Shown here: piece after piece, positions 1 to 31,332 of the stretch
Position numbering within the stretch: position 1 is the first letter of the stretch
How the letters are laid out: the number at the start of each line of letters is the position of its first letter
From: Escherichia coli
GTDB taxonomy: Bacteria; Pseudomonadota; Gammaproteobacteria; Enterobacterales; Enterobacteriaceae
Length of the DNA stretch: 64,000 nt
Assembly (NCBI RefSeq): GCF_044647545.1
Contig: NZ_CP172818.1
Reading direction: 5' to 3' (one strand)
Notes under the pieces: generated by a model
Database searches by the model: none
What the model saw: the letters and a program-made list of their open reading frames with translations, nothing else
Told to the model about the DNA's origin: nothing
Made by a program: the position numbers and the translations under genes

Positions 1-440
1 ATTGCCCCCAGCACACCATAAATCAGGCTACCGGTCATAAGCTGGACCACCGTACCCGTAATGGCGTAGTGCCAGTAATTGTAAATATCGACGTTCATCG
101 TTTTGGTCAGACGGGTGACCAGCATGGCGACATTGAGAAGAAAAATAACTGGGATAATCATGGCGCCAATGGCTGTCGCATAACCAACGCCGGAGGCAGG
201 GCCTGCGCCAACGTCAAAGACATGCAGGGCTAGGCCGAAACGCTCAATCATCACTTTGATAGGGGGACTGAGGCTGTCGATCGCCATGACGATCACCAGT
301 CCCATACCGACAAAACCAATCCCAACCGTTACCCCTGCCTTAATCGCCTGCAGCCAGGGGATGCGGAAGATAAGGCCAATCACGATCATGATGATAGGGA
401 CGAAAACGGTACCGCCGAGAGACAGGATGTAATCAAACAT
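1..440 (-). CDS. sgcC: PTS sugar transporter IIC component SgcC, N-terminal part only (gene runs off the window start)
   Basis: Reverse strand translates MFDYILSLGGTVFVPIIMIV... from ATG at 438-440; RBS AGGAGG at 445-450 (minus); followed by sgcB and sgcX as in K-12. Confidence 0.85.
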   Translation of the reverse strand, partial: MFDYILSLGGTVFVPIIMIVIGLIFRIPWLQAIKAGVTVGIGFVGMGLVIVMAIDSLSPPIKVMIERFGLALHVFDVGAGPASGVGYATAIGAMIIPVIFLLNVAMLVTRLTKTMNVDIYNYWHYAITGTVVQLMTGSLIYGVLGA

Positions 441-451
441 AATGCCTCCTT

Positions 452-730
452 TTATTGAGTTAACAGAGCCTTGATTTGTTGTTTTAACGCGTCGTCGTTG
501 ATCCCTGTGAGCAGGGCGGCGCCATTAAGCGTAGGGATGCCGTAATCACTGTTGGTTCGCATGGAGGTTACAATAAGGTCCATACCGTTACAGTTAAGAG
601 GGATCTCATTCAGACAGCATTGGGCGGTAGTGGCTGAAATGCCCTGTTCAGTCAGGAACTCTTGCAGCTTGTGTGCAATCATGGTTGAAGTCGACATGCC
701 GGTACCGCATGCCACAAGGATCTTTTTCAT
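452..730 (-). CDS. sgcB: PTS galactitol-like IIB component
   Basis: 92-aa ORF MKKILVACGTGMSTSTMIA... with the IIB Cys-phosphorylation motif; ATGA overlap with sgcX stop. Confidence 0.9.
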   Translation of the reverse strand: MKKILVACGTGMSTSTMIAHKLQEFLTEQGISATTAQCCLNEIPLNCNGMDLIVTSMRTNSDYGIPTLNGAALLTGINDDALKQQIKALLTQ

Positions 731-1848
731 AATGGATGTGCCTCTTGTGTAGTGCCTGAATCAGGCTCAACGGGGAAATGTGCTGCTGACATACCTGCCA
801 GAGCGGTCAATAGGCGGATGCAATCAGTCAAATCACGCAGGCTGGCAACCTCCGCCGGAGAATGGGTATAGCGACAAGGAATAGAGAGACTGGCGCAGGG
901 AATACCATCCTGCTCAACCTGGATATAACCGGTTTCTGTTATCACGCCGGGAGCCACTTCTCGCTGCACCGGAATGTTGTGTTCAAGAGCCGTCTGTTCC
1001 AACATCCGTATCAGGCGAGGAGGCGTGATTAATCCGGCCAGCGTTCCCCGACCATGGTAGTTCAGGCAGGTGATCCCAACGCCCTGATTAATCCTGACCT
1101 CGGAATAATCGTGTAAATCAGGGGTGTCACACGATGGAGTGATATCAATACCAATCGCCAGGTCAGGTTTTACACGGCGTAATACGGGAACAATGCCGCG
1201 GATATTAAATTCTTCCTGTACCGAAGCCACCAGATAAACGGCGATATCAAGCTCCATAGTACTGATAGCATCCGCTACACCGAGCAGGGCAGTACAGCCT
1301 AGACGATCGTCTAGTGCTTTACTGCACACCAGATCGTTTGCCAGGAGTTGCGGCGGGTTATACAGAGTGACAGGCGTACCGACCTGAATGCCCATCCGTA
1401 TAGCGTCGTCTTTGTCTTTGGCACCAATATCAATCCACAGTTTGTCGACAGAAGGTGACTGCGTGCGCTCGTCGCCTTTGGCAAAGTGGTAGGACTTAAT
1501 GCCGATACACCCCATGACTGGCCCTTTGTCCCCGGTGAGGGTGACGATGGAACCAGCCATAGTGACCTGCGCAGGACCGCCTACGCGTTCAAAGCGTAAA
1601 AATCCAGACGGCTCTATTTTGCGCACCATAAAACCGACTTCATCCATATGCGCAAAAATCATCAGTCGCAGCGCATCGGGTTTATCACTACCGTAGCGCG
1701 CGACGACATTCCCAAGCCTGTCTCGCCAGACCTCTTTTGCCTGACGCCTGAATTCGCACAGCATGACGTCAGCGACAGCGTTTTCGTGTCCTGAAATCGC
1801 ATTGTGCTGCAAAAGCGAGAACAGGGTTTCCTGCACAGAAAATGACAT
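727..1848 (-). CDS. sgcX: M42-family aminopeptidase/endoglucanase-like protein SgcX
   Basis: ORF 727-1878 opens at GTG; the ATG at 1846-1848 (MSFSVQETLF...) has a GGAG RBS and gives 373 aa. Confidence 0.85.
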   Translation of the reverse strand: MSFSVQETLFSLLQHNAISGHENAVADVMLCEFRRQAKEVWRDRLGNVVARYGSDKPDALRLMIFAHMDEVGFMVRKIEPSGFLRFERVGGPAQVTMAGSIVTLTGDKGPVMGCIGIKSYHFAKGDERTQSPSVDKLWIDIGAKDKDDAIRMGIQVGTPVTLYNPPQLLANDLVCSKALDDRLGCTALLGVADAISTMELDIAVYLVASVQEEFNIRGIVPVLRRVKPDLAIGIDITPSCDTPDLHDYSEVRINQGVGITCLNYHGRGTLAGLITPPRLIRMLEQTALEHNIPVQREVAPGVITETGYIQVEQDGIPCASLSIPCRYTHSPAEVASLRDLTDCIRLLTALAGMSAAHFPVEPDSGTTQEAHPL

Positions 1849-2633
1849 AGCTATCTCCGTAGACCGTAAAACAATCACTCGTTGAGCGTTTTATAGGCGC
1901 AGACTGGTCGAATAATTGTGAGAACGTTCACGTGAAAACGCGCAAAGCTGAACAAATAAAAAATTATGTGAGCCGAGTGGAATAAAAGCGCTCAACGTTT
2001 GTGAAAGTTACGGGCTGGAGAGACCAGTGATTATGGTTGAAATAATGAGGATGAATAAAACGCGGTAACTGTTATAGCACCACTTTGTTGCAGGACGCTC
2101 CCTCTTCATTACGTCCTGCACGTGGATACCCCAGCATCTCCATCAGCGGATCTTAGAATGTAATGGCGCGTGGCAGGTCGTTGGTTCCCAGCATAATGTA
2201 AGAAAACATCGGATCTCCTGAATAGATTCAGAGGGAGTATAGATAATCAGCTCAAATCACTCTCCGCTTTATGAGCCCAGGCTGGCATTGCCGTCAGATA
2301 ACGTTTTGCACGCTTATGTGCTTCCTCCGGGCCGACTTTTTGCCAGGAATCAAGGAAGCTGGCTAAACCTGATACCGCTTCTTCCCAGGGTTTGAGATTG
2401 CCGTTGCTGTCGCTGCATTACGCACAATATTGATCACTGGCACTGTGTGCATCTGGTGCCGACATCGGCATTCCGCAAGCCTGACAGAACTGTTCATGTT
2501 GTGACATATGATGCTCCTTATGGTGACATCTTGATTAATAAACATACTGAATATGTATTGTGCAGGTGATACATCAGATCAAAGCAAAGGTAAAGCCTCG
2601 ATATTTCCAGCCAGAAATACCGGGAACCTGTTG

Positions 2634-3380
2634 TTACCGGGCGATGAGTGCGAACACGCCCCAGCCAAAGCATTCCCGCGCGTAGGTCACGTAGCGTTTC
2701 GGCGCGATGTTTAGTTCGGCCCTGACTTCGGCGGCGAAGTCATCGTCAGGATTCGCTTCCAGCCAGCGGCGCATGGTCAGCCATTTTGCGGCTTCATACC
2801 GGTCCCAGCCTTCCTGGTCTGCCAGTACCATTTCCACCACGTCATAGCCGAGATCGTCGAACGCTCCGACAAGTCCTGGCAGCGTCAGGAAATCGCTTGT
2901 CGAGCTGACGCCGCAGGCCTGGGCTATTTCTTCTGTTGCTGGTAGCTGACGCCAGTAGGGTTCGCCGATAAGCATGATCCCGCCCGGTTTCAGGCTTTGC
3001 GCTAGCAGCTCCTCCGCCCCGGCAAACCCACCGGCAATCCATGTCGCGCCGACGCAGGCCGCCACGTCACATTTTTCATTTGCGACGTAACCGGCCGCAT
3101 CGTTATGAATAAAATGTACGCGTTCGCTGACGCCGAGTTCTTCCGCGCGACGCTTTGCCTGCGCGGTGAAGAGCGAACTCATGTCGATGCCAGTCCCCGT
3201 AATGCCATGATCCCTGGCCCAGGTGCAGAGCATCTCGCCCGAGCCGCTGCCGAGGTCAAGAATGCGGGTGCCCGGCTTCATGCGCAGCACGCGACCCAGC
3301 GTGGCGTACTTCTCTTCGGTGAACGGGTTATGGATGCGGTGTTCACTTTCGCTGATGGTAAAAATACGTGGGATATCCAT
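2634..3380 (-). CDS. yjhP: SAM-dependent methyltransferase (KpLE2 remnant)
   Basis: 248-aa ORF with methyltransferase motif ILDLGSGSGEM; position matches K-12 yjhP. Confidence 0.85.
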   Translation of the reverse strand: MDIPRIFTISESEHRIHNPFTEEKYATLGRVLRMKPGTRILDLGSGSGEMLCTWARDHGITGTGIDMSSLFTAQAKRRAEELGVSERVHFIHNDAAGYVANEKCDVAACVGATWIAGGFAGAEELLAQSLKPGGIMLIGEPYWRQLPATEEIAQACGVSSTSDFLTLPGLVGAFDDLGYDVVEMVLADQEGWDRYEAAKWLTMRRWLEANPDDDFAAEVRAELNIAPKRYVTYARECFGWGVFALIAR

Positions 3381-3435
3381 TATTTAATTCCTGTTATTGG
3401 GTTAAGCCTTAAAAAGGACACAACAAGATTGTTAT

Positions 3436-3981
3436 TCACGTCAGTGCTCCGGTTTCATCAGGGTCTGCGCACCGGATGTGGCCGGTCAGGGTCATGGGCT
3501 GAGCGGTGAGTGATTGCATCATCCAGCAGGCTTTGTGCTCCTCCGGGATGGGATAAGGTGCCGGATAGCCTTTGTCTCCGGCACAGGGTTCGAACCCATG
3601 TCGGGGGTAATAGGTGGCGTGGCCGAGAACAAAAACCGTCTGGCAGCCCATCAACCTCAGGTGCTCGATGCCAGTGCGTATCAACCGTCCTCCCACGCCC
3701 ATCCCTTGGTATTCCGGTATGACCGCCAGGGGAGCGAGGATGTGCATCAACGGTGAATCCATTTCTCCTTTGAAGGTTGCCCGGGTAAATAAAATATGCC
3801 CGACGGCTTTGCCTTCATACCGGGCTAGCAGCGATAACGCGGGGCGCGCGCTTTCATCCTCAAGTAAAGAGGCCACTAAATCGGCTTCTTTGCTGAAGCC
3901 AAATGCGCGGGTTTCGACTTCCCGGATATCACTGGCATCACTTTTATCTGTGATATGAAAAGTGAAGTGGTGTACTGTCAT
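3436..3981 (-). CDS. yjhQ: GNAT-family acetyltransferase, cognate antitoxin partner of TopAI
   Basis: 181-aa ORF, GNAT-like; immediately downstream of yjhX on the same strand. Confidence 0.85.
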   Translation of the reverse strand: MTVHHFTFHITDKSDASDIREVETRAFGFSKEADLVASLLEDESARPALSLLARYEGKAVGHILFTRATFKGEMDSPLMHILAPLAVIPEYQGMGVGGRLIRTGIEHLRLMGCQTVFVLGHATYYPRHGFEPCAGDKGYPAPYPIPEEHKACWMMQSLTAQPMTLTGHIRCADPDETGALT

Positions 3982-3992
3982 AGAAACTCTCC

Positions 3993-4250
3993 TTAGCGAT
4001 TATCGAGCTGAGCGCGAACTTTATTCAGCTCGGTGGTGTTGATTCGATAGGGCTGGCCATTGACGGACTTGATAAGTTTTTTGGTTTTGAGTTTTTTGAA
4101 GACGGCGAGCGTGCAGTCGGTCAGCAACAGCCCTTCGCGGCTGTAGCATTCAACGGAAGTGACGCGGCCTGAAGAATCGCGGACGTGCGCAATACGTCTA
4201 CCTTTAGCGAGAACGTGTAAGGTATGTTGTTCCTGACGGGATAAATTCAT
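3993..4250 (-). CDS. topAI: Topoisomerase I inhibitor toxin TopAI (YjhX)
   Basis: 85-aa [28 protein letters not shown]...; small toxin-sized gene upstream of yjhQ. Confidence 0.8.
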
Positions 4251-4740
4251 ACTGAAGAACCTATTTAATCATCATGTGCAAAACGTGCAAACACACCGCG
4301 GTGTCCGCATTCGATTTCGGCGCATTGATAATCAGTCCGGCCTGAAAAGGTCGGGGAACTGATTATCGGATGATTACATTCTCCAGCATCAAAGCCTCGG
4401 GTTGAGTTGAAAGGTATTTACGGAGCGAATATTAACACGTAGTTATAGGAGGGATATGTTTCAGTAGAAAAAGTGTGATGTACTTTGGAAATTGAATGCC
4501 AACCCATTTACTGGAAAAGGCAGATGACACTGACGAATGCATGTTGAAGTACGCCTGAAATGGCCTCATCGGCTTTTCCCTTCGGGAGATTATTCTCCTT
4601 TTGTTAAATCCAGAACATAAATATGCTCACCCATCTTCGATGCTTGAAAAATTGAAGCCAATCCTGATAAGTAATTTTTTTGAAAGGGTATTTTCCGGAT
4701 TCACACCGGCTTTGATGAGTGAAAAACCGTTCTCTTTTAT

Positions 4741-4959
4741 TCAGTCAATCGTGGCGGTAATTGCTTCAATTGCATATCCCTGGCGAGCATAAGCGGGACT
4801 GATGGTATAGCCGAGCCAAAACACATCGCATTGCTGACGTAAATAGATATCACCAATCAAAACCTGCGTCATTTGTTGACAATGGCCAATTGAATATCGC
4901 GAGCAAGTGTAAGAACTCCCAGCAAGACCCTGTAAATAATTCTGTGTAACTGCCCACGA
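4741..4959 (-). pseudogene. 3' fragment of a GNAT (RimL-like) acetyltransferase gene, no plausible full-length ORF
   Basis: Minus-strand translation ...MTQVLIGDIYLRQQCDVFWLGYTISPAYARQGYAIEAITATID*; closed by an in-frame stop at 4960-4962; below the 60-aa ORF-track cutoff. Confidence 0.35.
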
Positions 4960-5035
4960 TTAAAGGTGGTCGCTCAGGCGGTCACCGTATTCGATAATAA
5001 ATGGGTCTGGAAAAAGTGCAGCATCTGGCAGCGTA

Positions 5036-6228
5036 ATGCAGGTAGCCCAGTTCAACTCTCACTACCAGTATGATCCCAAGTTCGAGCGCGGAATGTATCT
5101 GTATGAGCATCGTCGCTGTTTCAATAACATCATCGACTACTGTAACTCACTTTGCTATCACGGTAAGTTGCAGCCTAAAAGAGGGATGGAAAAAGGACGA
5201 TTTTCCCCGCAATGGGATATTTACATATTGATGGTAGAGGCATGAAGCCAAATGGAGGGAGCCGTCATAACCCTCTTGAAGCTGAAACAATAGCAGCATG
5301 GCTGGTGGCACATAAGGATGATATAGAGCGCCATTACGGGGAACCACTGTACAAAGTTGTTGGTGTTGTGACGCCATTTTCGGCGCAGGTTAATGCTATC
5401 AAAATGTCATTGCGTAAGCTGGAAATTAATGGCAAAGACGAGCAGGGTTTACTGACAGTGGGGACTGTGCACTCCTTGCAGGGGGCGGAAAGGGCGATTG
5501 TTCTCTTTTCTCCTGTCTACTCAAAACATGAAGATGGCAGGTTTCTTGATAGCAACAGCACTATCCTCAATGTTGCTGTCTCACGCGCTAAAGATAGTTT
5601 TCTGGTATTTGGCGATATGGACCTTATCGAGATGCAGCCCGCATTTTCGCCGCGAGGGTTATTGGCAAAATATCTCTTTTCTTCAGATAATAATGCGTTG
5701 CAATTTGAGTTTCAGAAACGACAGGATTTAATTTCCGCACATACACAAATTTCAACGCTGCATGGTGTGGAGCAGCATGATGAATTTTTGAACAAGACTC
5801 TTGCCGGAGCTCAAAAGAAAATAACGATTATTTCCCCTTGGTTATCCTGGCAAAAAGTGGAGCAAACGGGATTTCTGGCATCAATGGCTTTGGCCCGTTC
5901 CCGGGGCATTGATATTACCGTGGTGACGGATAAAAACTGCAATATAGCGCATGTCGATGATGATAAGCGTCAGGAGAAACAACATCTGCTGAATGATGCT
6001 GTTGAAAAGCTCAATAAGATGGGTATCGCTACGAAATTGGTTAATCGTGTTCACAGCAAAATTGTGATTGAGGATGAAGAACTGCTGTGTGTCGGATCTT
6101 TTAACTGGTTCAGTGCTACACGGGAAGATAAGTATCAACGATACGATACGTCTTTGGTGTACCGTGGTGAAGGCGTAAAAAATGAAATAAAGGCAATATA
6201 TGGTAGTCTGGATCAACGTCAGCTTTAA
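5036..6228 (+). pseudogene. yjhR: Frameshifted, 5'-truncated SF1 helicase C-terminal domain fused to a PLD-like (HxK) nuclease domain
   Basis: ORF 5036-5245 (..[11 protein letters not shown]..) continues in another frame as ORF 5212-6228 (..[15 protein letters not shown].., ..[20 protein letters not shown]..); no helicase N-terminal motifs upstream. Confidence 0.7.
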
Positions 6229-6810
6229 ATGTGATGAGCCGTTCATGATACAGGAGTAGTAAAGGGCATATTTTACCAATGTTAAGGCGACTTTCCGTTT
6301 TATTGCGAGTCGCCTTTCCTGATTATAAATCTTATTGTTTACCTAATCATTTTCCTTTGCATAATGCGCCTGGGATTAATGGCGGGTGCTTTTAGGAATG
6401 AAAGAAAATGCAAGCAATAATATAATAATGGCCTAATTTCTTTGAACATCATTAAGCATATCATCATCGTCTATTTGCCAGAATCCGTCGACTTATAATC
6501 GCCAGAACGGCATATCAGGACGGTGCTGCGAACGCTGTGGCCCAAAACGTTCCAGTAAACTGTGTAGATGTTCGTAGATTTCCGAGCCATAATCGAAAAG
6601 GCGCGGATGTCTATTAAGGCATCCGGCTAATCTGTAAGCAATAACAACGGTTTATGCGGTGCGCGTTTTTCACCCTTGTGCCAGATTATTATATTGGCAA
6701 TTGCCTGCTGTTCGAGCCCGCAAGTGAAGAGATATTACCTTGATCTCATTTGTTTTTTGTTGTCTACTCTGAGAACGAACAAGGACATCCCCCATGAATA
6801 AACTCCCCGC

Positions 6811-7791
6811 TCACCTTTCGCGCCAAAACTGCAAAATTGCTTCTACAAACCTGTCAGAAATAATCCCTCGACGGGCTGCCGCGCTGAAATGACTGCTTCG
6901 CAGTGCCGTCGTCCAGTTCTCCGGTGACCGGTACGCTGAACCGTAATATCCCGTGCTTAAATCGTCCGGATCTTCATCAGGCGCGTTCGTCAGTCCTCTT
7001 GCACCTTGTTGCTGGAAGTCGACGAAAATAATATTGGCTAGAACATTATTTTGATAATTGCCATAAATAGCTTCATACGCATGAGGGAAATTTTCTTTCC
7101 AGTACCAGGTGGTATCGCCGCAAAACCACGGCGCGTCAGTAATTTTATTAAGCTGAGAATGGTATTGTTTTAGATCCCTACGAAAGGCGTCAACCATATG
7201 ATTAAAGTGTTGAGGGTGTGACGCGTAGTCACTGGTCATTAAGTCAAATTCGCCTTGCATCCAGCATACGCCGAGGAATTTGTTCTGCGGATTTTTTGCC
7301 AGTGCGGCTCGCGTTCTGCTGACTAAATCCTGGTATAGCGGAGTATCCGTTCCCCAACGACAAGCATCATGGCTGGCTCCGTGCCGTTCTGAATATGTCC
7401 CTTCGCTGCCCGCGGTAAAAGCCGATCCGCCACGGCAACACGGAACGATGAGAACCCCTGCATTATCAGGAATAAAGGGCAGTAATTTCCGTGCTATATG
7501 TAGTGCCTGGCCAACGGTGCCGTACTGTGTTTGATGATTCGTTGCCAGAGGATGGTGATAACCCTGCATATCCTGAACATCGTGTGGGCAGTGAGTCAGT
7601 GGAATAATGTCGTTAAAGTGACATGACGGGCCTCCGGGATGTGTATGCGCAAATCTCGCTAATTGTTTAATTCTGGGATGAGGCGCATCTTCCTTGTCCG
7701 GTAATGGTAGTCCTTCGCCATACGCCATGGCATTAGACTGACCAGCAACGGTAAGAACATAGTAATAATCGGGCGATATTATTGCGTTCAT
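6811..7791 (-). CDS. nanS: 9-O-acetyl-N-acetylneuraminate esterase
   Basis: ORF 6811-7818; ATG at 7789-7791 gives MNAIISPDYYYVLTVAGQSNA... (326 aa). Confidence 0.85.
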   Translation of the reverse strand: MNAIISPDYYYVLTVAGQSNAMAYGEGLPLPDKEDAPHPRIKQLARFAHTHPGGPSCHFNDIIPLTHCPHDVQDMQGYHHPLATNHQTQYGTVGQALHIARKLLPFIPDNAGVLIVPCCRGGSAFTAGSEGTYSERHGASHDACRWGTDTPLYQDLVSRTRAALAKNPQNKFLGVCWMQGEFDLMTSDYASHPQHFNHMVDAFRRDLKQYHSQLNKITDAPWFCGDTTWYWKENFPHAYEAIYGNYQNNVLANIIFVDFQQQGARGLTNAPDEDPDDLSTGYYGSAYRSPENWTTALRSSHFSAAARRGIISDRFVEAILQFWRER

Positions 7792-7855
7792 ATAATTTTC
7801 GCGTAATACAAATGACAAATTGATAGCAAGGCCCCTTTACCGGGGCCCTGAAGCG

Positions 7856-8962
7856 TTAGTTTTGTACTGTGACTTTATTATCCTTCACAGAAATTAAAAC
7901 TGAATCCGTCACCGCTTTGCCGCCTGCAGTTTCACCGCCAATAATTAATAAACTATTATTCCAGGGCAATGATACTCCGTAGGCCCGACCTTGCGATAAT
8001 TCGCCCGATTTATCCCATTTCCCGTTATGCCAAAGATGAATATCAGCGCTATATGATTTTTTCAGGCCTTCATGCGCATAGTTCTTACCGTTCTGGTAAT
8101 TTTCTCGTGAACCTTTGAATCCGGCCCCTCCGGCAAATATAAGTGAGTCATTGCTCATGCCTGCAAAACCGCCAGCGACGCCATCTGGTGATGCGACGGG
8201 AGCAAGCTTATTCCATTTTAAATTATTACCGGTGAAATCAAGTTCAAATACGGCATCCGTTCGCAATCCTGGTTTGGCTTCGCCATTAATAAGCCAGGTT
8301 TTATCACCTTTATTCACAACCGCCGCACCAGCCGTTCCGTACCAGGGAGATTCGCCAGCGTAACTCCATTGCTGTGTAGAGGGATCAAAAGACAACAGAA
8401 ACTTATTGAAGAAATAATCTTCTGCTTTTTTGTCAAAATAGTGGGCGTTGATTTTATCTATAGTGGTTGAATCTTTTCCAGCTTCGTTGAGATCTTCAAA
8501 ATAGCCATTGAAGATATTCTGGTTAACACCGCCAGTAACATAAGCCTTGCCGTTGTGTACAAAAGTCACATGGCCCGCCATGCCCATCGGCGCGTGCGAC
8601 ATCAATTTAACCCAGCTATTGGTTTTGGGGTTGTATTTGTGTACGTCATTAAATACCTGAGTCAAGCCCTCGCTGTTTTTGCCAATGCCGCCAAACACAT
8701 ACAGATTACCATCAATAAATGCAGAGGTTGCTTGATCTCTCGGTCCACCAGGGAATGCAGCTAACGCTGTCCATTTTTTATCTTTGGCCTGTGTATCCAG
8801 CTTGTACCATGCTGTACCTGCGCTACCTAAACCAATGTAGACAGTGTCGTTATCAATTGCTCCGGTACCACTTTTAAATGGCACAGGAGTTTCCGGTAAT
8901 ACAGACGCGTTTGCGGCAAATGAAGCCATTATGATAGCAAGCGCCGTTATTGTTTTATTCAT
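7856..8962 (-). CDS. nanM: N-acetylneuraminate mutarotase (Kelch-repeat periplasmic protein)
   Basis: ORF 7856-9070; ATG at 8960-8962 (MNKTITALAIIMASFAANA...) with a signal peptide and GGAGA RBS. Confidence 0.85.
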   Translation of the reverse strand: MNKTITALAIIMASFAANASVLPETPVPFKSGTGAIDNDTVYIGLGSAGTAWYKLDTQAKDKKWTALAAFPGGPRDQATSAFIDGNLYVFGGIGKNSEGLTQVFNDVHKYNPKTNSWVKLMSHAPMGMAGHVTFVHNGKAYVTGGVNQNIFNGYFEDLNEAGKDSTTIDKINAHYFDKKAEDYFFNKFLLSFDPSTQQWSYAGESPWYGTAGAAVVNKGDKTWLINGEAKPGLRTDAVFELDFTGNNLKWNKLAPVASPDGVAGGFAGMSNDSLIFAGGAGFKGSRENYQNGKNYAHEGLKKSYSADIHLWHNGKWDKSGELSQGRAYGVSLPWNNSLLIIGGETAGGKAVTDSVLISVKDNKVTVQN

Positions 8963-8981
8963 TGTGACTGTCTCCTGTCTA

Positions 8982-9698
8982 CTACAGTTTAAATGATACA
9001 CCAATGCGATAACTGTTTTCCGATAAATTATCTCTGCCGTTGTAAACACCCTGACGGTCAAGGTAGTCATATTCTATGTATGGCGTAATATCGGGCGTCA
9101 TATGGTATTGTAGAACAAATGCATTTTCCGTCGCCCATTTCTTATGGTTTGCATAGCGATAATCGTTCTGTTTGCTGTATAGCGTCGTTTGCCATGCGAA
9201 GGTGAAATCACTATTAATATGGTAAGTGACATATCCATCCCAACGATGAACGTTATCACGAGACATATCACCGGATAAGTCTTGTTGTCGGTAAGCTTTC
9301 CAGTCGTAACGATAGCGAATGCCAAAATTAAGATCTTTTGTCGCGTCCCAGGACAGTTTTACGTAGGGTCCGTAGCGGGTGCCGTTGCTGCTAAAATGCG
9401 TTAACATTCCCGGGCGCACCGTCCATTGATCATCAAGTTTAATCGCGTAATTAACTTCAACCTGAACATCATTGAGTGCGGCATTTTCCTTTTTATTATC
9501 ATGAATGGTATTCCAGGTATTACTTTCCATGCTTGCCCACCATCCATTTTGCCATCCCTCACTGACTTTGAGTCGAGTCTCATAGGCATGGCTTCCGCTA
9601 CGATATCCACCACGTACGTCCAGTGTCGCAGCCTGAGAAATTAATGGTGACGAAAAGCACAGTAATAATACGCCAGAAAGTATTTTAGCCTTTTTCAT
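8982..9698 (-). CDS. nanC: N-acetylneuraminic acid outer-membrane channel (KdgM family)
   Basis: ATG at 9696-9698 gives MKKAKILSGVLLLCFSSPLISQA... (238 aa); beta-barrel C-terminal ...IGVSFKL. Confidence 0.9.
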   Translation of the reverse strand: MKKAKILSGVLLLCFSSPLISQAATLDVRGGYRSGSHAYETRLKVSEGWQNGWWASMESNTWNTIHDNKKENAALNDVQVEVNYAIKLDDQWTVRPGMLTHFSSNGTRYGPYVKLSWDATKDLNFGIRYRYDWKAYRQQDLSGDMSRDNVHRWDGYVTYHINSDFTFAWQTTLYSKQNDYRYANHKKWATENAFVLQYHMTPDITPYIEYDYLDRQGVYNGRDNLSENSYRIGVSFKL

Positions 9699-10121
9699 AA
9701 ATTTCACTCATTTGTAGGATACAGAAAGCAATACAAAGCCCGCATAAACAATTAGCATTTATGTTGTGTAATATTTTTTGCCAGGCTTATAGTGTCTTTG
9801 GCAATGGGTAGCTTATTTTATATTTTTTGTATAAGGTCTCCTGTGAAAATTCTCTTTTCACATTATTTAAATAAACAGAGAGCCAGATTAAATACCTGAG
9901 TATAAAATCTCTTCTGATGTTTAATTGATTTGAATGTTCGTAAGCTATATCACTTACTCAATCCATTTTACCCAGAGTCATAAAATAGAGTGTTTGTTGA
10001 TCTCATTTTCATATTCCTTTCAGACTGAAGTGCGTTTTCATCACCCGATGAGAAAGAACTGAAGTGATGTTTGCCATAGATTGCAAGATGCCCTGTCTCA
10101 TTGTCTATCGCGGTGCACCTT

Positions 10122-10136
10122 TATACCTGTTATACC
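10122..10136 (-). promoter_or_regulatory. Candidate NanR operator (two GGTATA hexamers, GGTATAACAGGTATA on the minus strand)
   Basis: Plus strand reads tatacc-tgt-tatacc, about 420 bp upstream of nanC. Confidence 0.5.
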
Positions 10137-10883
10137 AGATCAAAAATCACGCAATCCATACAACAAAACCAGATTTGCAATTCGTGTCACAAAATATGTC
10201 GATCTTTTTCTAAGAGGAAGATGCCATGTGAAGCCAGACGAACACTTGCGGTGGTCTTCAAAAACTAAAGATATTCTTTTAAATATCTGTTTTATAAATA
10301 ATTTATTTAGAGTCTAAATAAGGGAAGCTTTGTAAGCTAACTCAGTGAGCTTGGTGAAAATAAGTGTTTACCCGCCATCAGGCTTAGCATAATTCTCATC
10401 ATGAAATATGTTTCCTGGTTTGTGGCTTGTAACTGGTCACTCCTGAAGCCGATCTGGAGAGGCTTGTTGATGTTGGTGTTTTCAGGGTGATGCCTCACTT
10501 AGTTTGTTTGCCGTATCGCCCGGCGAACAGCTGTGATTGAGGAAGGTTTAAGTCGTAGTGACCAAAGCCATATTTACCAACGGATGCAGATGAAAAAATC
10601 GTTTCCTGCTTTCCCCCATATCTCCATGATAAAAAGGAATGTAACAATCTCATGGTCTAAACTGACGAACCAGCCAGGAATAATCGCTAGGGACCTAAGA
10701 ATTAGCATGATAATAGCCACTAAGAAATTACTGCGTTCCATGAAATAGCCATTTTGTGGCAAATGGAGTTGACTAATAATGTCATATGTGAGACGGCTAG
10801 TTGAGCGAATATTAAATTTTGCTGAATTTTTTATGTTGATTTTACTTGTTACAGAACATATCACATGATATATAGATAATAAG

Positions 10884-11544
10884 AGAAGACAGCGCCGGGG
10901 GCCCGCGGCGCCCGCTCCCAGCGCGGCGGGGGCGGGGGGGGGATATAAGGGAGCCTCGTCCCACACCAGCAAAGGGGACGCGGCTCGAGCCCAGCGGGAA
11001 GGGGCGCGGGGAACGTCCGAAGGCGTCATACGCGTAAAACAGCCAGCGCGCGCGATGCGCACATCCCACGTTCGTCCATTCCGCGCAGGACGTGACGACG
11101 CCGGCGTTGGCGGGTTACCGCGCGGCGGGCTGCGGGGCGTTGAGGAACGCCCATAATGGCGGGCGTGCGGCTCCAACGTTCGGCTCTGTTTGGGCTGGTG
11201 CGTACCGGGTTGAGAAGCGGGTAAGTGAACGCGTTGCCGTTTTACGGCAGTGAGAGCGAGTAGCGCCCGCGCGCGGGGGGGGCGGCGGGGCGCGGCCGGT
11301 GTCCCCGGCGCGGCGCGGGTTCGTGGAGGCCACGCGCCAGTGCGGGAGTGGGCCCGGCATGCGAACGGCCGCACTGGGGGCATTCAATGACGACCTTCTC
11401 GGTTCGTGGTGGAGAGGGGGGGACGGTGGGCAGGGCGGCGGGGCGCGGCCCGGCGGGGCCGCGCACCGGGGGGGGGGGGGGGGGGGGGGGGGCGCACCAC
11501 CCCGCGTGCTGCGGGGCAGCGGTGGGCGGCCCCTCTCTCGGGAA
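10884..11544. other. Non-native GC-rich block with a 32-nt G homopolymer occupying the position of fimB-fimE-fimAICDFG and most of fimH; probable artefact or engineered scar, not a gene
   Basis: Abrupt switch at about 10884 from AT-rich nanC-fimB intergenic DNA to high-GC sequence with G runs (10920-10940, 11273-11281, 11469-11502); ends where the fimH reading frame resumes. Confidence 0.8.
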
Positions 11545-11715
11545 CAGTTGATGCGCAACGGTACGATTATTCCAGCGAATAACACGGTATCGTTAGGAGC
11601 AGTAGGGACTTCGGCGGTAAGTCTGGGATTAACGGCAAATTACGCACGTACCGGAGGGCAGGTGACTGCAGGGAATGTGCAATCGATTATTGGCGTGACT
11701 TTTGTTTATCAATAA
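11545..11715 (+). pseudogene. fimH: 3' remnant of fimH (type 1 fimbrial adhesin); the rest of the fim operon is absent
   Basis: Translation ...RNGTIIPANNTVSLGAVGTSAVSLGLTANYARTGGQVTAGNVQSIIGVTFVYQ* matches the FimH C-terminus; upstream frame dissolves into GC-rich filler. Confidence 0.85.
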
Positions 11716-11785
11716 AGAAATCACAGGGCATTGCTAATGCAGGTACGCAATATTACCTGAAGCTAAAAACCTGCACGTTAGCCCT

Positions 11786-11826
11786 TTGTAGGCCAGATAA
11801 GACGCGTCAGCGTCGCATCTGGCATA
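11786..11826. repeat. REP (repetitive extragenic palindromic) element
   Basis: tgtaggccagataagacgcgtcagcgtcgcatctggcat, canonical REP consensus. Confidence 0.7.
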
Positions 11827-11887
11827 AACAAAGCGCACTTTGCGACAATCCGAACAGAGCCCGCCATTGGCAGGCTCTGGTGTTCTT

Positions 11888-13231
11888 TTACGCTACCATG
11901 CTAATAATCAACACAATAATCAGCCCAACCACGGAGTTGACCAGCTCCAGCAGTCCCCAGGTTTTCAACGTGTCTTTTACCGACAGGTCAAAGTAACCTT
12001 TGAACAGCCAGAATGAGGCATCATTAATGTGGGTGAGGGTGTTGGAACCCGCAGCCGTCGCCAGCACCAGCAGCGCCGGATTCACGCCAACCAGCTGACC
12101 GGTTGCTGGATCAAGGATTGCAGCACTGATAATCCCGGCGGCGGTCATCGCCGAAACGACACCCTGACCCGTCGCCAGACGAATTAGCACAGTGATCAGC
12201 CATGCCATAATGTAGGGCGAGATATTGCCGTGGGACATCAACATGCCGATGGTGTCGCCAATGCCGGTGTCGATGATAGTTTGCTTCAACACGCCACCCG
12301 CACCGATGATCAGAATCACCATTGCAATGCTTTTCACCGCACTTTCAAAAGCGTTCATCACCCACTGCATGTCATGACCACGTGCGGTGCCAAAGAGTAC
12401 GAATGCAACCACCATCGCAATAAACATTGCAATCGGCGAGGAACCGATAAAGTTAACCACTTCCCAGGCAGGGGTATCTTTTACCAGCCAGATATTGGCG
12501 ATGGTGGTGGAGATCATAATGATCGCCGGGATCAGCGGCACCAGAATCGAAACGCCGAAAGAGGGCAGATTGTTCATATCTACCGGTTGATCTGCTTTCA
12601 GGAATGATGGCGTTGGGCGCTCAAGATTGCCGAGGAACTTCGGCAGGATCAGACCTGCGCAGATTACACTTGGGATCGTCACCAGTACGCCATAGATATA
12701 AACCATCCCCATATCTGCGCCATAAGCATTCACCAGCGCCACAGGACCCGGCTGCGGTGGGAACAGTGAATGTGCGGTAGTGGCAGCTGCTACTGCCGGG
12801 ATCGCCAGTTTCAGGAACGGAATTTTAGCTTCGGCGGCAATGACAATAACCAGCGGCGCTAACATGATAAAGGCCACTTCATAGAACATCGCCAGACCAA
12901 AAATCAGGCCGATGATAATCACCGACAGCTGTACATAGCGCAGACCGAGACGCGCCAGCAGCGTATGTGCTATCTGGTGAGCCGCGCCGGAGTCGACCAT
13001 CAATTTACCGATGACCGCACCGAACACCACGATGATAGCCAGTTCCCCCAGCGTGTTGCCGAAGCCCGCTTTCATGGTGTGCAGCAGCGACATCAAATCC
13101 ATGCCCGCCAGCATCCCGACGGACAGCGCCGCCACCAACAAAGCCACCATTGAATTGATTTTGAACTTCAAATTCAGTACCAGCATCAGACCAATGCCGA
13201 ATACCACCCAGAGAATGTTAAGCACATGCAT
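11888..13231 (-). CDS. gntP: Fructuronate/gluconate transporter (GntP family)
   Basis: 447-aa multi-[22 protein letters not shown]... Confidence 0.9.
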
Positions 13232-30376: not shown

Positions 30377-31205
<829 letters not shown>

Positions 31206-31332
31206 AGGACGCTGGTGCACTAATGACGAAACAAAGGAGGGGTTCTTCACGTTTGTGAAGGTGCCGAAACTGGATATGGACTATTGAGTGAAATGTCAGG
31301 CCGCAGATGCGGCGCCATCATCCGGCCCAAAA

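Follow-up and report, generated by a model that had tools for sequence, protein, structure and literature searches.

The yjhR Pseudogene of Escherichia coli, Very Probably a Relic of the Type II Mokosh Gene mkoC

Introduction

The pseudogene yjhR of Escherichia coli raises the questions of which gene it descends from, how that gene was broken and whether what is left of it still functions. They were addressed in a stretch of 64,000 nucleotides of the E. coli contig NZ_CP172818.1 (hereafter the window). A first-pass annotation, made from the letters of the window alone, had described at this place a decayed gene joining a helicase C-terminal domain to a phospholipase D (PLD)-type nuclease domain, an architecture that it regarded as typical of defence nucleases. 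We conclude with high confidence that positions 5003–6228 hold, in inactivated form, the C-terminal 35% of mkoC, the one gene of the anti-phage system type II Mokosh, and that the gene is dead in this genome. Mokosh associates an RNA helicase (COG1112, Upf1-like) with a PLD nuclease; in type II the two are fused, the helicase being N-terminal and the PLD domain C-terminal (Millman et al. 2022). Defence is abolished by mutation of either the helicase ATP-binding site or the PLD site (Millman et al. preprint). The type II variant that was tested is a 132-kDa monomer protecting against an ssDNA phage only (bioRxiv 2025.07.10.664194).

Both the annotation of yjhR as a pseudogene and its identification as Mokosh precede this work; the locus represents an ordinary gene fossil rather than a new system. 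The elements added here are descriptive, namely the exact mapping of the lesions, a rare intact allele, its position relative to the attR site and the decay of three adjacent genes.

Results and Discussion

The yjhR Remnant

Window positions 5003–6228 of the plus strand align to the C-terminal 408 codons of an intact allele of the helicase-PLD gene yjhR (see below). They contain two overlapping ORFs in different frames of that strand, 5036–5245 (69 aa) and 5212–6228 (338 aa), exactly as the first-pass annotation had it. The segment 4300–6400 is 100% identical to E. coli K-12 BW25113, in which PGAP annotates the equivalent of 4988–6228 as a yjhR pseudogene (“helicase YjhR; frameshifted; incomplete; missing N-terminus”). 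The features of the region are listed in Table 1. Segment A was delimited by DNA alignment to the intact yjhR of NZ_AP027764.1 (locus L006, from position 9947), which is 97.6% identical over 2,900 nt, and a tblastn search with the intact YjhR protein matched residues 759–832 to window 4988–5209.

Table 1. Coordinates of yjhR segments and neighbouring features in the window.
Feature	Position	Strand	Remarks
yjhQ	3436–3981	−	Upstream of yjhR
topAI	3993–4250	−	Upstream of yjhR
Acetyltransferase (GNAT) gene debris, adjoined by the IS256-family element	4627–4926	−	Pfam Acetyltransf_3 7e-4, under the Pfam cutoff
IS256-family (ISEc39-like) terminal fragment, 77 bp	4926–5002	−	IS end (inverted repeat) at the 4926 side
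yjhR′ segment A	5003–5194	+	Codons 764–827 of the ancestral 1,171-codon mkoC, in the frame of ORF 5036–5245
Frameshift lesion	5195–5196	+	GG versus GGG of the intact allele
yjhR′ segment B	5197–6228	+	Codons 829–1171 and stop; annotated 338-aa YjhR ORF from ATG 5212
PLD nuclease domain within segment B	about 5794–6111	+	Pfam PLDc_2/PLDc
PLD catalytic signature, intact	6052–6105	+	HSKIVIED (HxKx4D) 6052–6075, GSFN 6094–6105
N-terminal remnant of the phosphorothioated DNA-binding restriction endonuclease gene, HNH part gone	6465–6711	−	90% identity to L007 12090–12337, within an intact 290-aa gene
Upstream region and first ~10 codons of the 216-aa HNH endonuclease gene	6705–6822	+	86% identity to L007 12404–12522

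A domain search of the translation, the check suggested in the first-pass annotation, returned both a helicase and a PLD domain in Pfam, along with the MkoC model of PADLOC (2.4e-179; see below), all with scores well outside what chance would produce. The 338-aa ORF matches PLDc_2 (2.9e-11, 43.8 bits, cutoff 27) and the PLDc active-site motif (7.4e-07, 29.4 bits, cutoff 21.9), both above the Pfam gathering thresholds as expected for a nuclease of the PLD superfamily. The proposed HxK nuclease domain is therefore present with its HSKIVIED motif intact, and the 20-aa peptide quoted for it, encoded by 6052–6111, contains both this motif and GSFN. The same ORF matches the helicase family AAA_12 (6.7e-19) at profile positions 81–194 of 195. 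A helicase C-terminal domain was thus correctly recognized, but its extent was overstated: judging by the aligned profile positions, the helicase part is only a portion, the tail, of the second RecA-like domain of a DNA2/NAM7/Upf1-type SF1 enzyme. It includes the sequences TVHSLQGAE (5464–5490) and LNVAVSRAK (5566–5592), which we take to be SF1 helicase motifs V and VI.

Intact Alleles and Assignment to Type II Mokosh

One protein returned by a large protein search, P0002, is 96% identical and 310 residues longer at its N-terminus; its DNA is a 2.2-kb contig. Full-length proteins were absent from this search, which returned partial or truncated relatives of at most 723 aa. Probing of 5,426 complete E. 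coli genomes with the upstream DNA of the P0002 contig then identified an intact yjhR at the same chromosomal locus in 13 of them. The full-length homologues that the first-pass annotation proposed to look for hence exist within E. coli itself, as a 1,171-aa allele. The uninterrupted CDS of 3,516 nt is annotated “helicase YjhR” in strains 2017-02-2CC and N1420, where it is found upstream of nanS-nanM-nanC-fimB, and an E. coli metagenome-assembled contig has the same synteny around yjhR. Intact alleles of this length occupy 4330772–4334287 of NZ_AP027764.1 and 4064640–4068155 of NZ_CP176489.1.

The intact protein aligns to PADLOC MkoC over profile positions 1–1135 of 1136 (1,468 bits). Pfam delineates in it AAA_11 (273–347), AAA_12 (795–969) and PLDc_2 (1028–1153); its sequence carries a Walker A motif (GPPGTGKT at 294), motif II (DEAG at 697) and an HKD motif (H1114-x-K-x4-D). 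It is 66% identical to the verified MkoC of E. coli 5-366-08_S1_C1 over the first 398 aa, the residues printed in the table of Millman et al., and phage protection was demonstrated for that homologue (Millman et al.). A sequence-only search of the PDB with intact YjhR gave marginal matches (E about 1e-4) to DNA2, IGHMBP2 and a 5′-3′ RNA helicase-like protein, in agreement with an Upf1/DNA2-like class; a solved Mokosh structure was not found among these matches.

The two-frame conceptual translation of the remnant is matched by the MkoC model with an E-value of 2.4e-179 (597 bits) at profile positions 736–1135 of 1136. All other PADLOC models score 1e-18 or weaker, including those of type I Mokosh (MkoA 3.5e-18, MkoB 2.5e-14), and NCBIfam yields only local matches below threshold (NucT, 0.0048, far under its cutoff). 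The earlier reading as a defence nuclease can accordingly be refined to a family, type II Mokosh, and a gene, mkoC. The complete SF1 helicase followed by a PLD domain that characterizes type II Mokosh is found in the intact allele and not in the window copy, in which the PLD active site (HxKx4D) is nevertheless preserved.

Weak matches of the remnant to DrmC (5.6e-05), PDC-S37, the PLuB helicase-like protein (1.1e-13) and ProA (1.1e-08), together with DNA2 and IGHMBP2 as best solved-structure sequence matches, might suggest a helicase-PLD gene of another family, such as a DrmC-type PLD of DISARM accompanied by a helicase, a helicase of the ProA or PLuB type, or a repair enzyme resembling DNA2. 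However, these similarities are local, far below NCBIfam cutoffs and more than 150 orders of magnitude weaker than the one to MkoC, whose profile the intact allele matches end to end besides its 66% identity to a verified member. Descent from another family is highly improbable and effectively refuted.

Truncation and Frameshift

Homology to the intact allele begins at window 5002/5003 (L006 position 9947), which corresponds to codon 764 and is situated 33 nt before the ATG at 5036. Codons 1–763, or 65% of the protein, are missing. Both Walker A (G294PPGTGKT) and DEAG (697–700) fall within the missing part, so that the ATP-binding signature of type II Mokosh, which precedes the break at codon 764, is not found in the window copy. 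The loss of the N-terminus inferred in the first-pass annotation can therefore be given an exact boundary. That annotation also considered that an upstream piece might restore the gene; tblastn with the intact protein identified no N-terminal part of YjhR in the whole 64-kb window. Because the DNA found upstream of the intact alleles is absent in the window, we infer that the native promoter was lost together with the 5′ part of yjhR. A promoter scan of the plus strand detected no sigma-70-like promoter in the ~570 nt before 5036, which is a weak negative.

The second lesion affects a run of G at 5195–5196, where GGG has lost one base to become GG (GAAAAAGGGACG in the intact allele and GAAAAAGGACG in the window). 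It is the sole gap (1 bp at 5194/5195) in the alignment of the remnant coding sequence to L006 and changes the frame 17 nt upstream of the ATG at 5212. A frameshift had been proposed near 5212–5245: the frameshift is real, but that interval is merely the overlap between the two ORFs.

Its location in a homopolymer run, and the presence of corrupted G-rich stretches elsewhere in the window (10880–11545 and 30400–31240), could raise the suspicion that the frameshift is a sequencing or assembly error, or else a programmed one, the true product being the 397-aa ORF. This is barely credible. The segment 4300–6400 is 100% identical not only to BW25113 but also to other independent assemblies, the exact 81-nt sequence across the lesion is found in 922 complete genomes, and PGAP flags the same frameshift in K-12. 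A sequencing error is refuted by these identities, and a repaired ORF would still be devoid of 763 codons. The frameshift is taken hereafter as a genuine second lesion of a truncated mkoC.

The G-rich stretches themselves deserve a comment. Positions 10880–11545 form a block of ~660 bp with very high G+C content and a ~30-nt poly-G run, found where the fim operon (fimB to most of fimH) is expected. Its core (11016–11266) has about 76% identity to IS1, which several E. coli genomes carry at exactly the junction between the region upstream of fimB and the 3′ end of fimH, and the block as written is found in no complete E. coli genome. It looks like an IS1-mediated fim deletion whose IS1 copy was corrupted in assembly, unrelated to yjhR. 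The second stretch, 30400–31240, is composed of about 800 bp of almost pure G (GC 0.73 and GC skew 0.53 in the 1-kb bin) with runs longer than 100 G; it resembles an artefact of sequencing or assembly rather than biology, and calls in or beside it are to be distrusted. Window 1–10879 aligns to BW25113 with 4 gaps. Because the identity over this length is only 99.0%, although that of 4300–6400 is 100%, the source strain is K-12-like and not K-12 itself.

The Break Point

At position 5002 the yjhR sequence abuts the interior of an IS256-family fragment, which contains the last transposase codons (minus strand), is severed there and directly adjoins codon 764. The segment 4925–5002 is 100% identical to an IS256-family transposase pseudogene found elsewhere in E. 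coli, where the IS sequence runs on. The fragment shares 90% identity with the end of ISEc39, and a matching inverted repeat is found at the other ISEc39 end. Since the junction with yjhR is inside the IS, the end-points of the deletion are IS-internal on one side and gene-internal on the other. A simple IS-mediated adjacent deletion was considered and rejected, the yjhR junction not being at the IS terminus.

The acetyltransferase debris is represented in the window by a 43-aa ORF (4741–4872) and in other strains by a 99-aa ORF; in strain EC5931 (L003 6328–6627) PGAP annotates its equivalent as “GNAT family N-acetyltransferase”. This debris and the IS fragment occupy the space between yjhR and the upstream topAI and yjhQ, the TopAI-YjhQ neighbourhood to which the first-pass annotation had rightly drawn attention.

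Position Relative to leuX and attR

KpLE2, in a remnant of which yjhR had been placed, has been described as an element associated with leuX, with a P4-type integrase and the fec and sgc genes among its contents (PMC3032704). In BW25113, leuX and then the integrase are found about 38 kb upstream of yjhR. Both intact-allele strains feature, about 250 nt before mkoC, a ~70-nt copy of the leuX 3′ end and terminator (attR). To the left of this repeat their islands are wholly different, one being a complete P4-like satellite with a reverse-transcriptase gene beside the integrase and the other consisting of methyltransferases and IS debris, and their homology starts exactly at the repeat, which puts mkoC outside attR. 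On the basis of this comparison, mkoC and its two partner nucleases (see below) would lie immediately beyond attR, outside the leuX islands that the intact-allele strains carry at present, and would not be cargo of these islands. The attribution to KpLE2 consequently needs a caveat: the intact gene is about 250 nt outside the attR copy of leuX, and the window has no att copy, a search of positions 1–12000 with the leuX repeat having returned only chance matches of 9–13 nt.

Two further observations were made in the leuX–yjhR interval. The leuX att repeat, about 70 nt long, takes in the tRNA terminator hairpin. The complete P4-like satellite (integrase, delta, psu, sid, an icd-like gene and primase) is found in both L006 and L010, with a gene for a 961-aa RNA-directed DNA polymerase and a small ORF between integrase and delta. 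Defence cargo of P4-like elements sits between integrase and delta, and the polymerase gene is, by analogy, possibly a reverse-transcriptase defence system.

Two Further Decayed Nuclease Genes Downstream of yjhR

In strain N1420 the intact mkoC is followed by an intact gene for a 290-aa “phosphorothioated DNA-binding restriction endonuclease” and by one for a 216-aa HNH endonuclease. The two genes match PADLOC restriction and HNH models, the first of them matching PADLOC HNH models as well as Pfam HNH_2. Both have left traces downstream of the yjhR remnant (Table 1), and PGAP marks the K-12 copy of the 290-aa endonuclease gene as a frameshifted, truncated pseudogene. The pseudogene yjhR is hence one of three decayed defence nucleases in a row, a point missed by the first-pass annotation.

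The small ORF YthB (32 aa, 6794–6892, plus strand) opens with the start codon of the lost HNH gene (MNKLPAHLSR compared to MNKLPDHLPR); its remainder is read from sequence past the deletion junction near 6822. Its sequence suggests that YthB is a chimeric ORF, left behind by a lost defence gene and still opening with the start of that gene. Homology common to nearly all E. coli starts only at window 6808, the 3′ end of nanS, and other strains have different content in the yjhR–nanS interval, for example BREX genes or other nucleases. The nanS gene itself (6811–7818, minus strand) is a full 335-aa ORF in the window and is annotated as truncated in BW25113.

Distribution in the Population and Signs of Decay

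The segment around the frameshift, as detected with an 81-nt probe spanning the lesion, is carried by 1,708 of the 5,426 complete genomes. The probe is matched at 100% identity in 922 genomes, to which the frameshift is therefore common. The band of 95–99% identity holds 780 genomes (98.8%), and every listed match spans 82 nt, one base more than the probe; strains without the frameshift would read a truncated ORF of 397 aa (P0003). At least 80% of window 4300–6400, a segment to which the IS/yjhR junction belongs, is covered in 1,475 genomes. From these counts, the order of events would most simply be that truncation came first and the frameshift later, on a sub-lineage.

Only 10 changes fall on the truncated branch when N1420 serves as outgroup, 3 of them synonymous and 7 non-synonymous; between two intact alleles, 129 codons differ synonymously and 68 non-synonymously. 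These counts are consistent with relaxed constraint on the truncated branch. In other strains the remnant has been hit independently by IS1, IS3, IS5, IS66 and ISEc52. The 338-aa and 397-aa ORFs belong to clusters of identical sequences with 1,335 (P0005) and 695 (P0003) members, respectively.

The size of these clusters, hundreds of identical sequences each, and a complete PLD domain with intact HxKx4D and GSFN are what would be expected if the remnant were alive. In that case a promoter arisen by chance would drive the truncated ORF, 338 aa in the window and 397 aa where the frameshift is absent, and its product would dimerise like Nuc or Zucchini and serve in a new role as a single-HKD nuclease acting alone. 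We consider this very unlikely. Clonal sampling of K-12 and lineages related to it accounts for the many identical copies, the native promoter region is presumably lost with no promoter-like site upstream, and in other strains the remnant is interrupted by several IS insertions of independent origin. The ratio of 7 non-synonymous to 3 synonymous changes on its branch stands against 68 to 129 between intact alleles. Moreover, mutation of the ATP-binding site alone abolishes Mokosh defence (Millman et al.), and here the whole ATP-binding half is missing. There is an equally slender chance that an exapted fragment is made at low level and either cuts on its own as a single-HKD nuclease or acts on an incoming Mokosh as a decoy or dominant-negative partner. 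The reading of the locus as a dead mkoC is retained in what follows.

Proposed Function of the Ancestor and History of the Locus

The ancestral protein of 1,171 aa was composed of an N-terminal region, an SF1 Upf1/DNA2-like helicase core and one C-terminal PLD domain. Its helicase may load onto nucleic acid of the phage, whether RNA, ssDNA or a replication intermediate; translocation powered by ATP could then license the PLD domain to cut. With one HKD motif per PLD domain, cleavage may depend on the pairing of two molecules on the substrate. A deletion running from within the IS256-family element into yjhR removed codons 1–763, probably the native promoter, and the adjacent attR copy of leuX, thereby welding island DNA to the yjhR remnant. 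The 1-bp deletion in the G run, later or on a sub-lineage, split the 397-aa ORF into pieces of 69 and 338 aa, and the two downstream defence genes decayed likewise. As a result of the truncation, the G-run deletion and the decay of the downstream genes, the locus is probably inactive today and records, as a scar, how defence genes turn over at the hotspot of integration in leuX.

The general importance of the yjhR result is little, yet it bears on the choice of a Mokosh reference. Cury et al. compared the piRNA factors MOV10L1 and PLD6 with the AlphaFold model of K-12 YjhR and reported TM-scores of 0.74 and 0.63, respectively (bioRxiv 10.1101/2022.12.12.520048). The “Mokosh from E. coli K12 (yjhR)” of Fig. 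2 and Table S7 in that work is the 338-aa AF-P39369, and the MOV10L1 helicase alignment in Table S7 covers only YjhR residues 2–154. K-12 YjhR (UniProt P39369, 338 aa), used as a representative fused Mokosh, is a frameshifted C-terminal fragment without the ATPase half; the proper reference is provided by intact 1,171-aa alleles such as WP_338387444.1 and WP_033555724.1. The remnant also explains why K-12 scores Mokosh-negative despite a recognisable sequence. The locus is a clean, datable case of defence-gene decay beside the leuX integration hotspot: its three neighbouring nuclease genes survive intact in a few strains, and about a third of E. coli genomes have them in eroded form.

Comparison with Known Systems

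The closest known system is the type II MkoC of E. coli 5-366-08_S1_C1, with which the intact allele shares its length of 1,171 aa and the order helicase then PLD. The window copy differs from it by the loss of 65% of the protein, including the ATP-binding half, and by the frameshift, and it is no working MkoC. The helicase and PLD domains of the remnant are also homologous to those of type I Mokosh (MkoA kinase-helicase and MkoB PLD), but type I is made of two genes with a serine/threonine kinase domain, and the similarity to them is local and far below that to MkoC. The same pairing of domains is found in the animal piRNA factors MOV10L1/Armitage (helicase) and PLD6/Zucchini (PLD nuclease) and in Upf1; homology to these is at the domain level only, the eukaryotic ones being separate proteins with extra domains. 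The single-HKD PLD nucleases Nuc, NucT and BfiI are small stand-alone homodimers. Like them, YjhR has one HxKx4D followed by GSxN, but in its case the PLD domain forms the C-terminal part of a helicase reported to be monomeric (bioRxiv 2025.07.10.664194).
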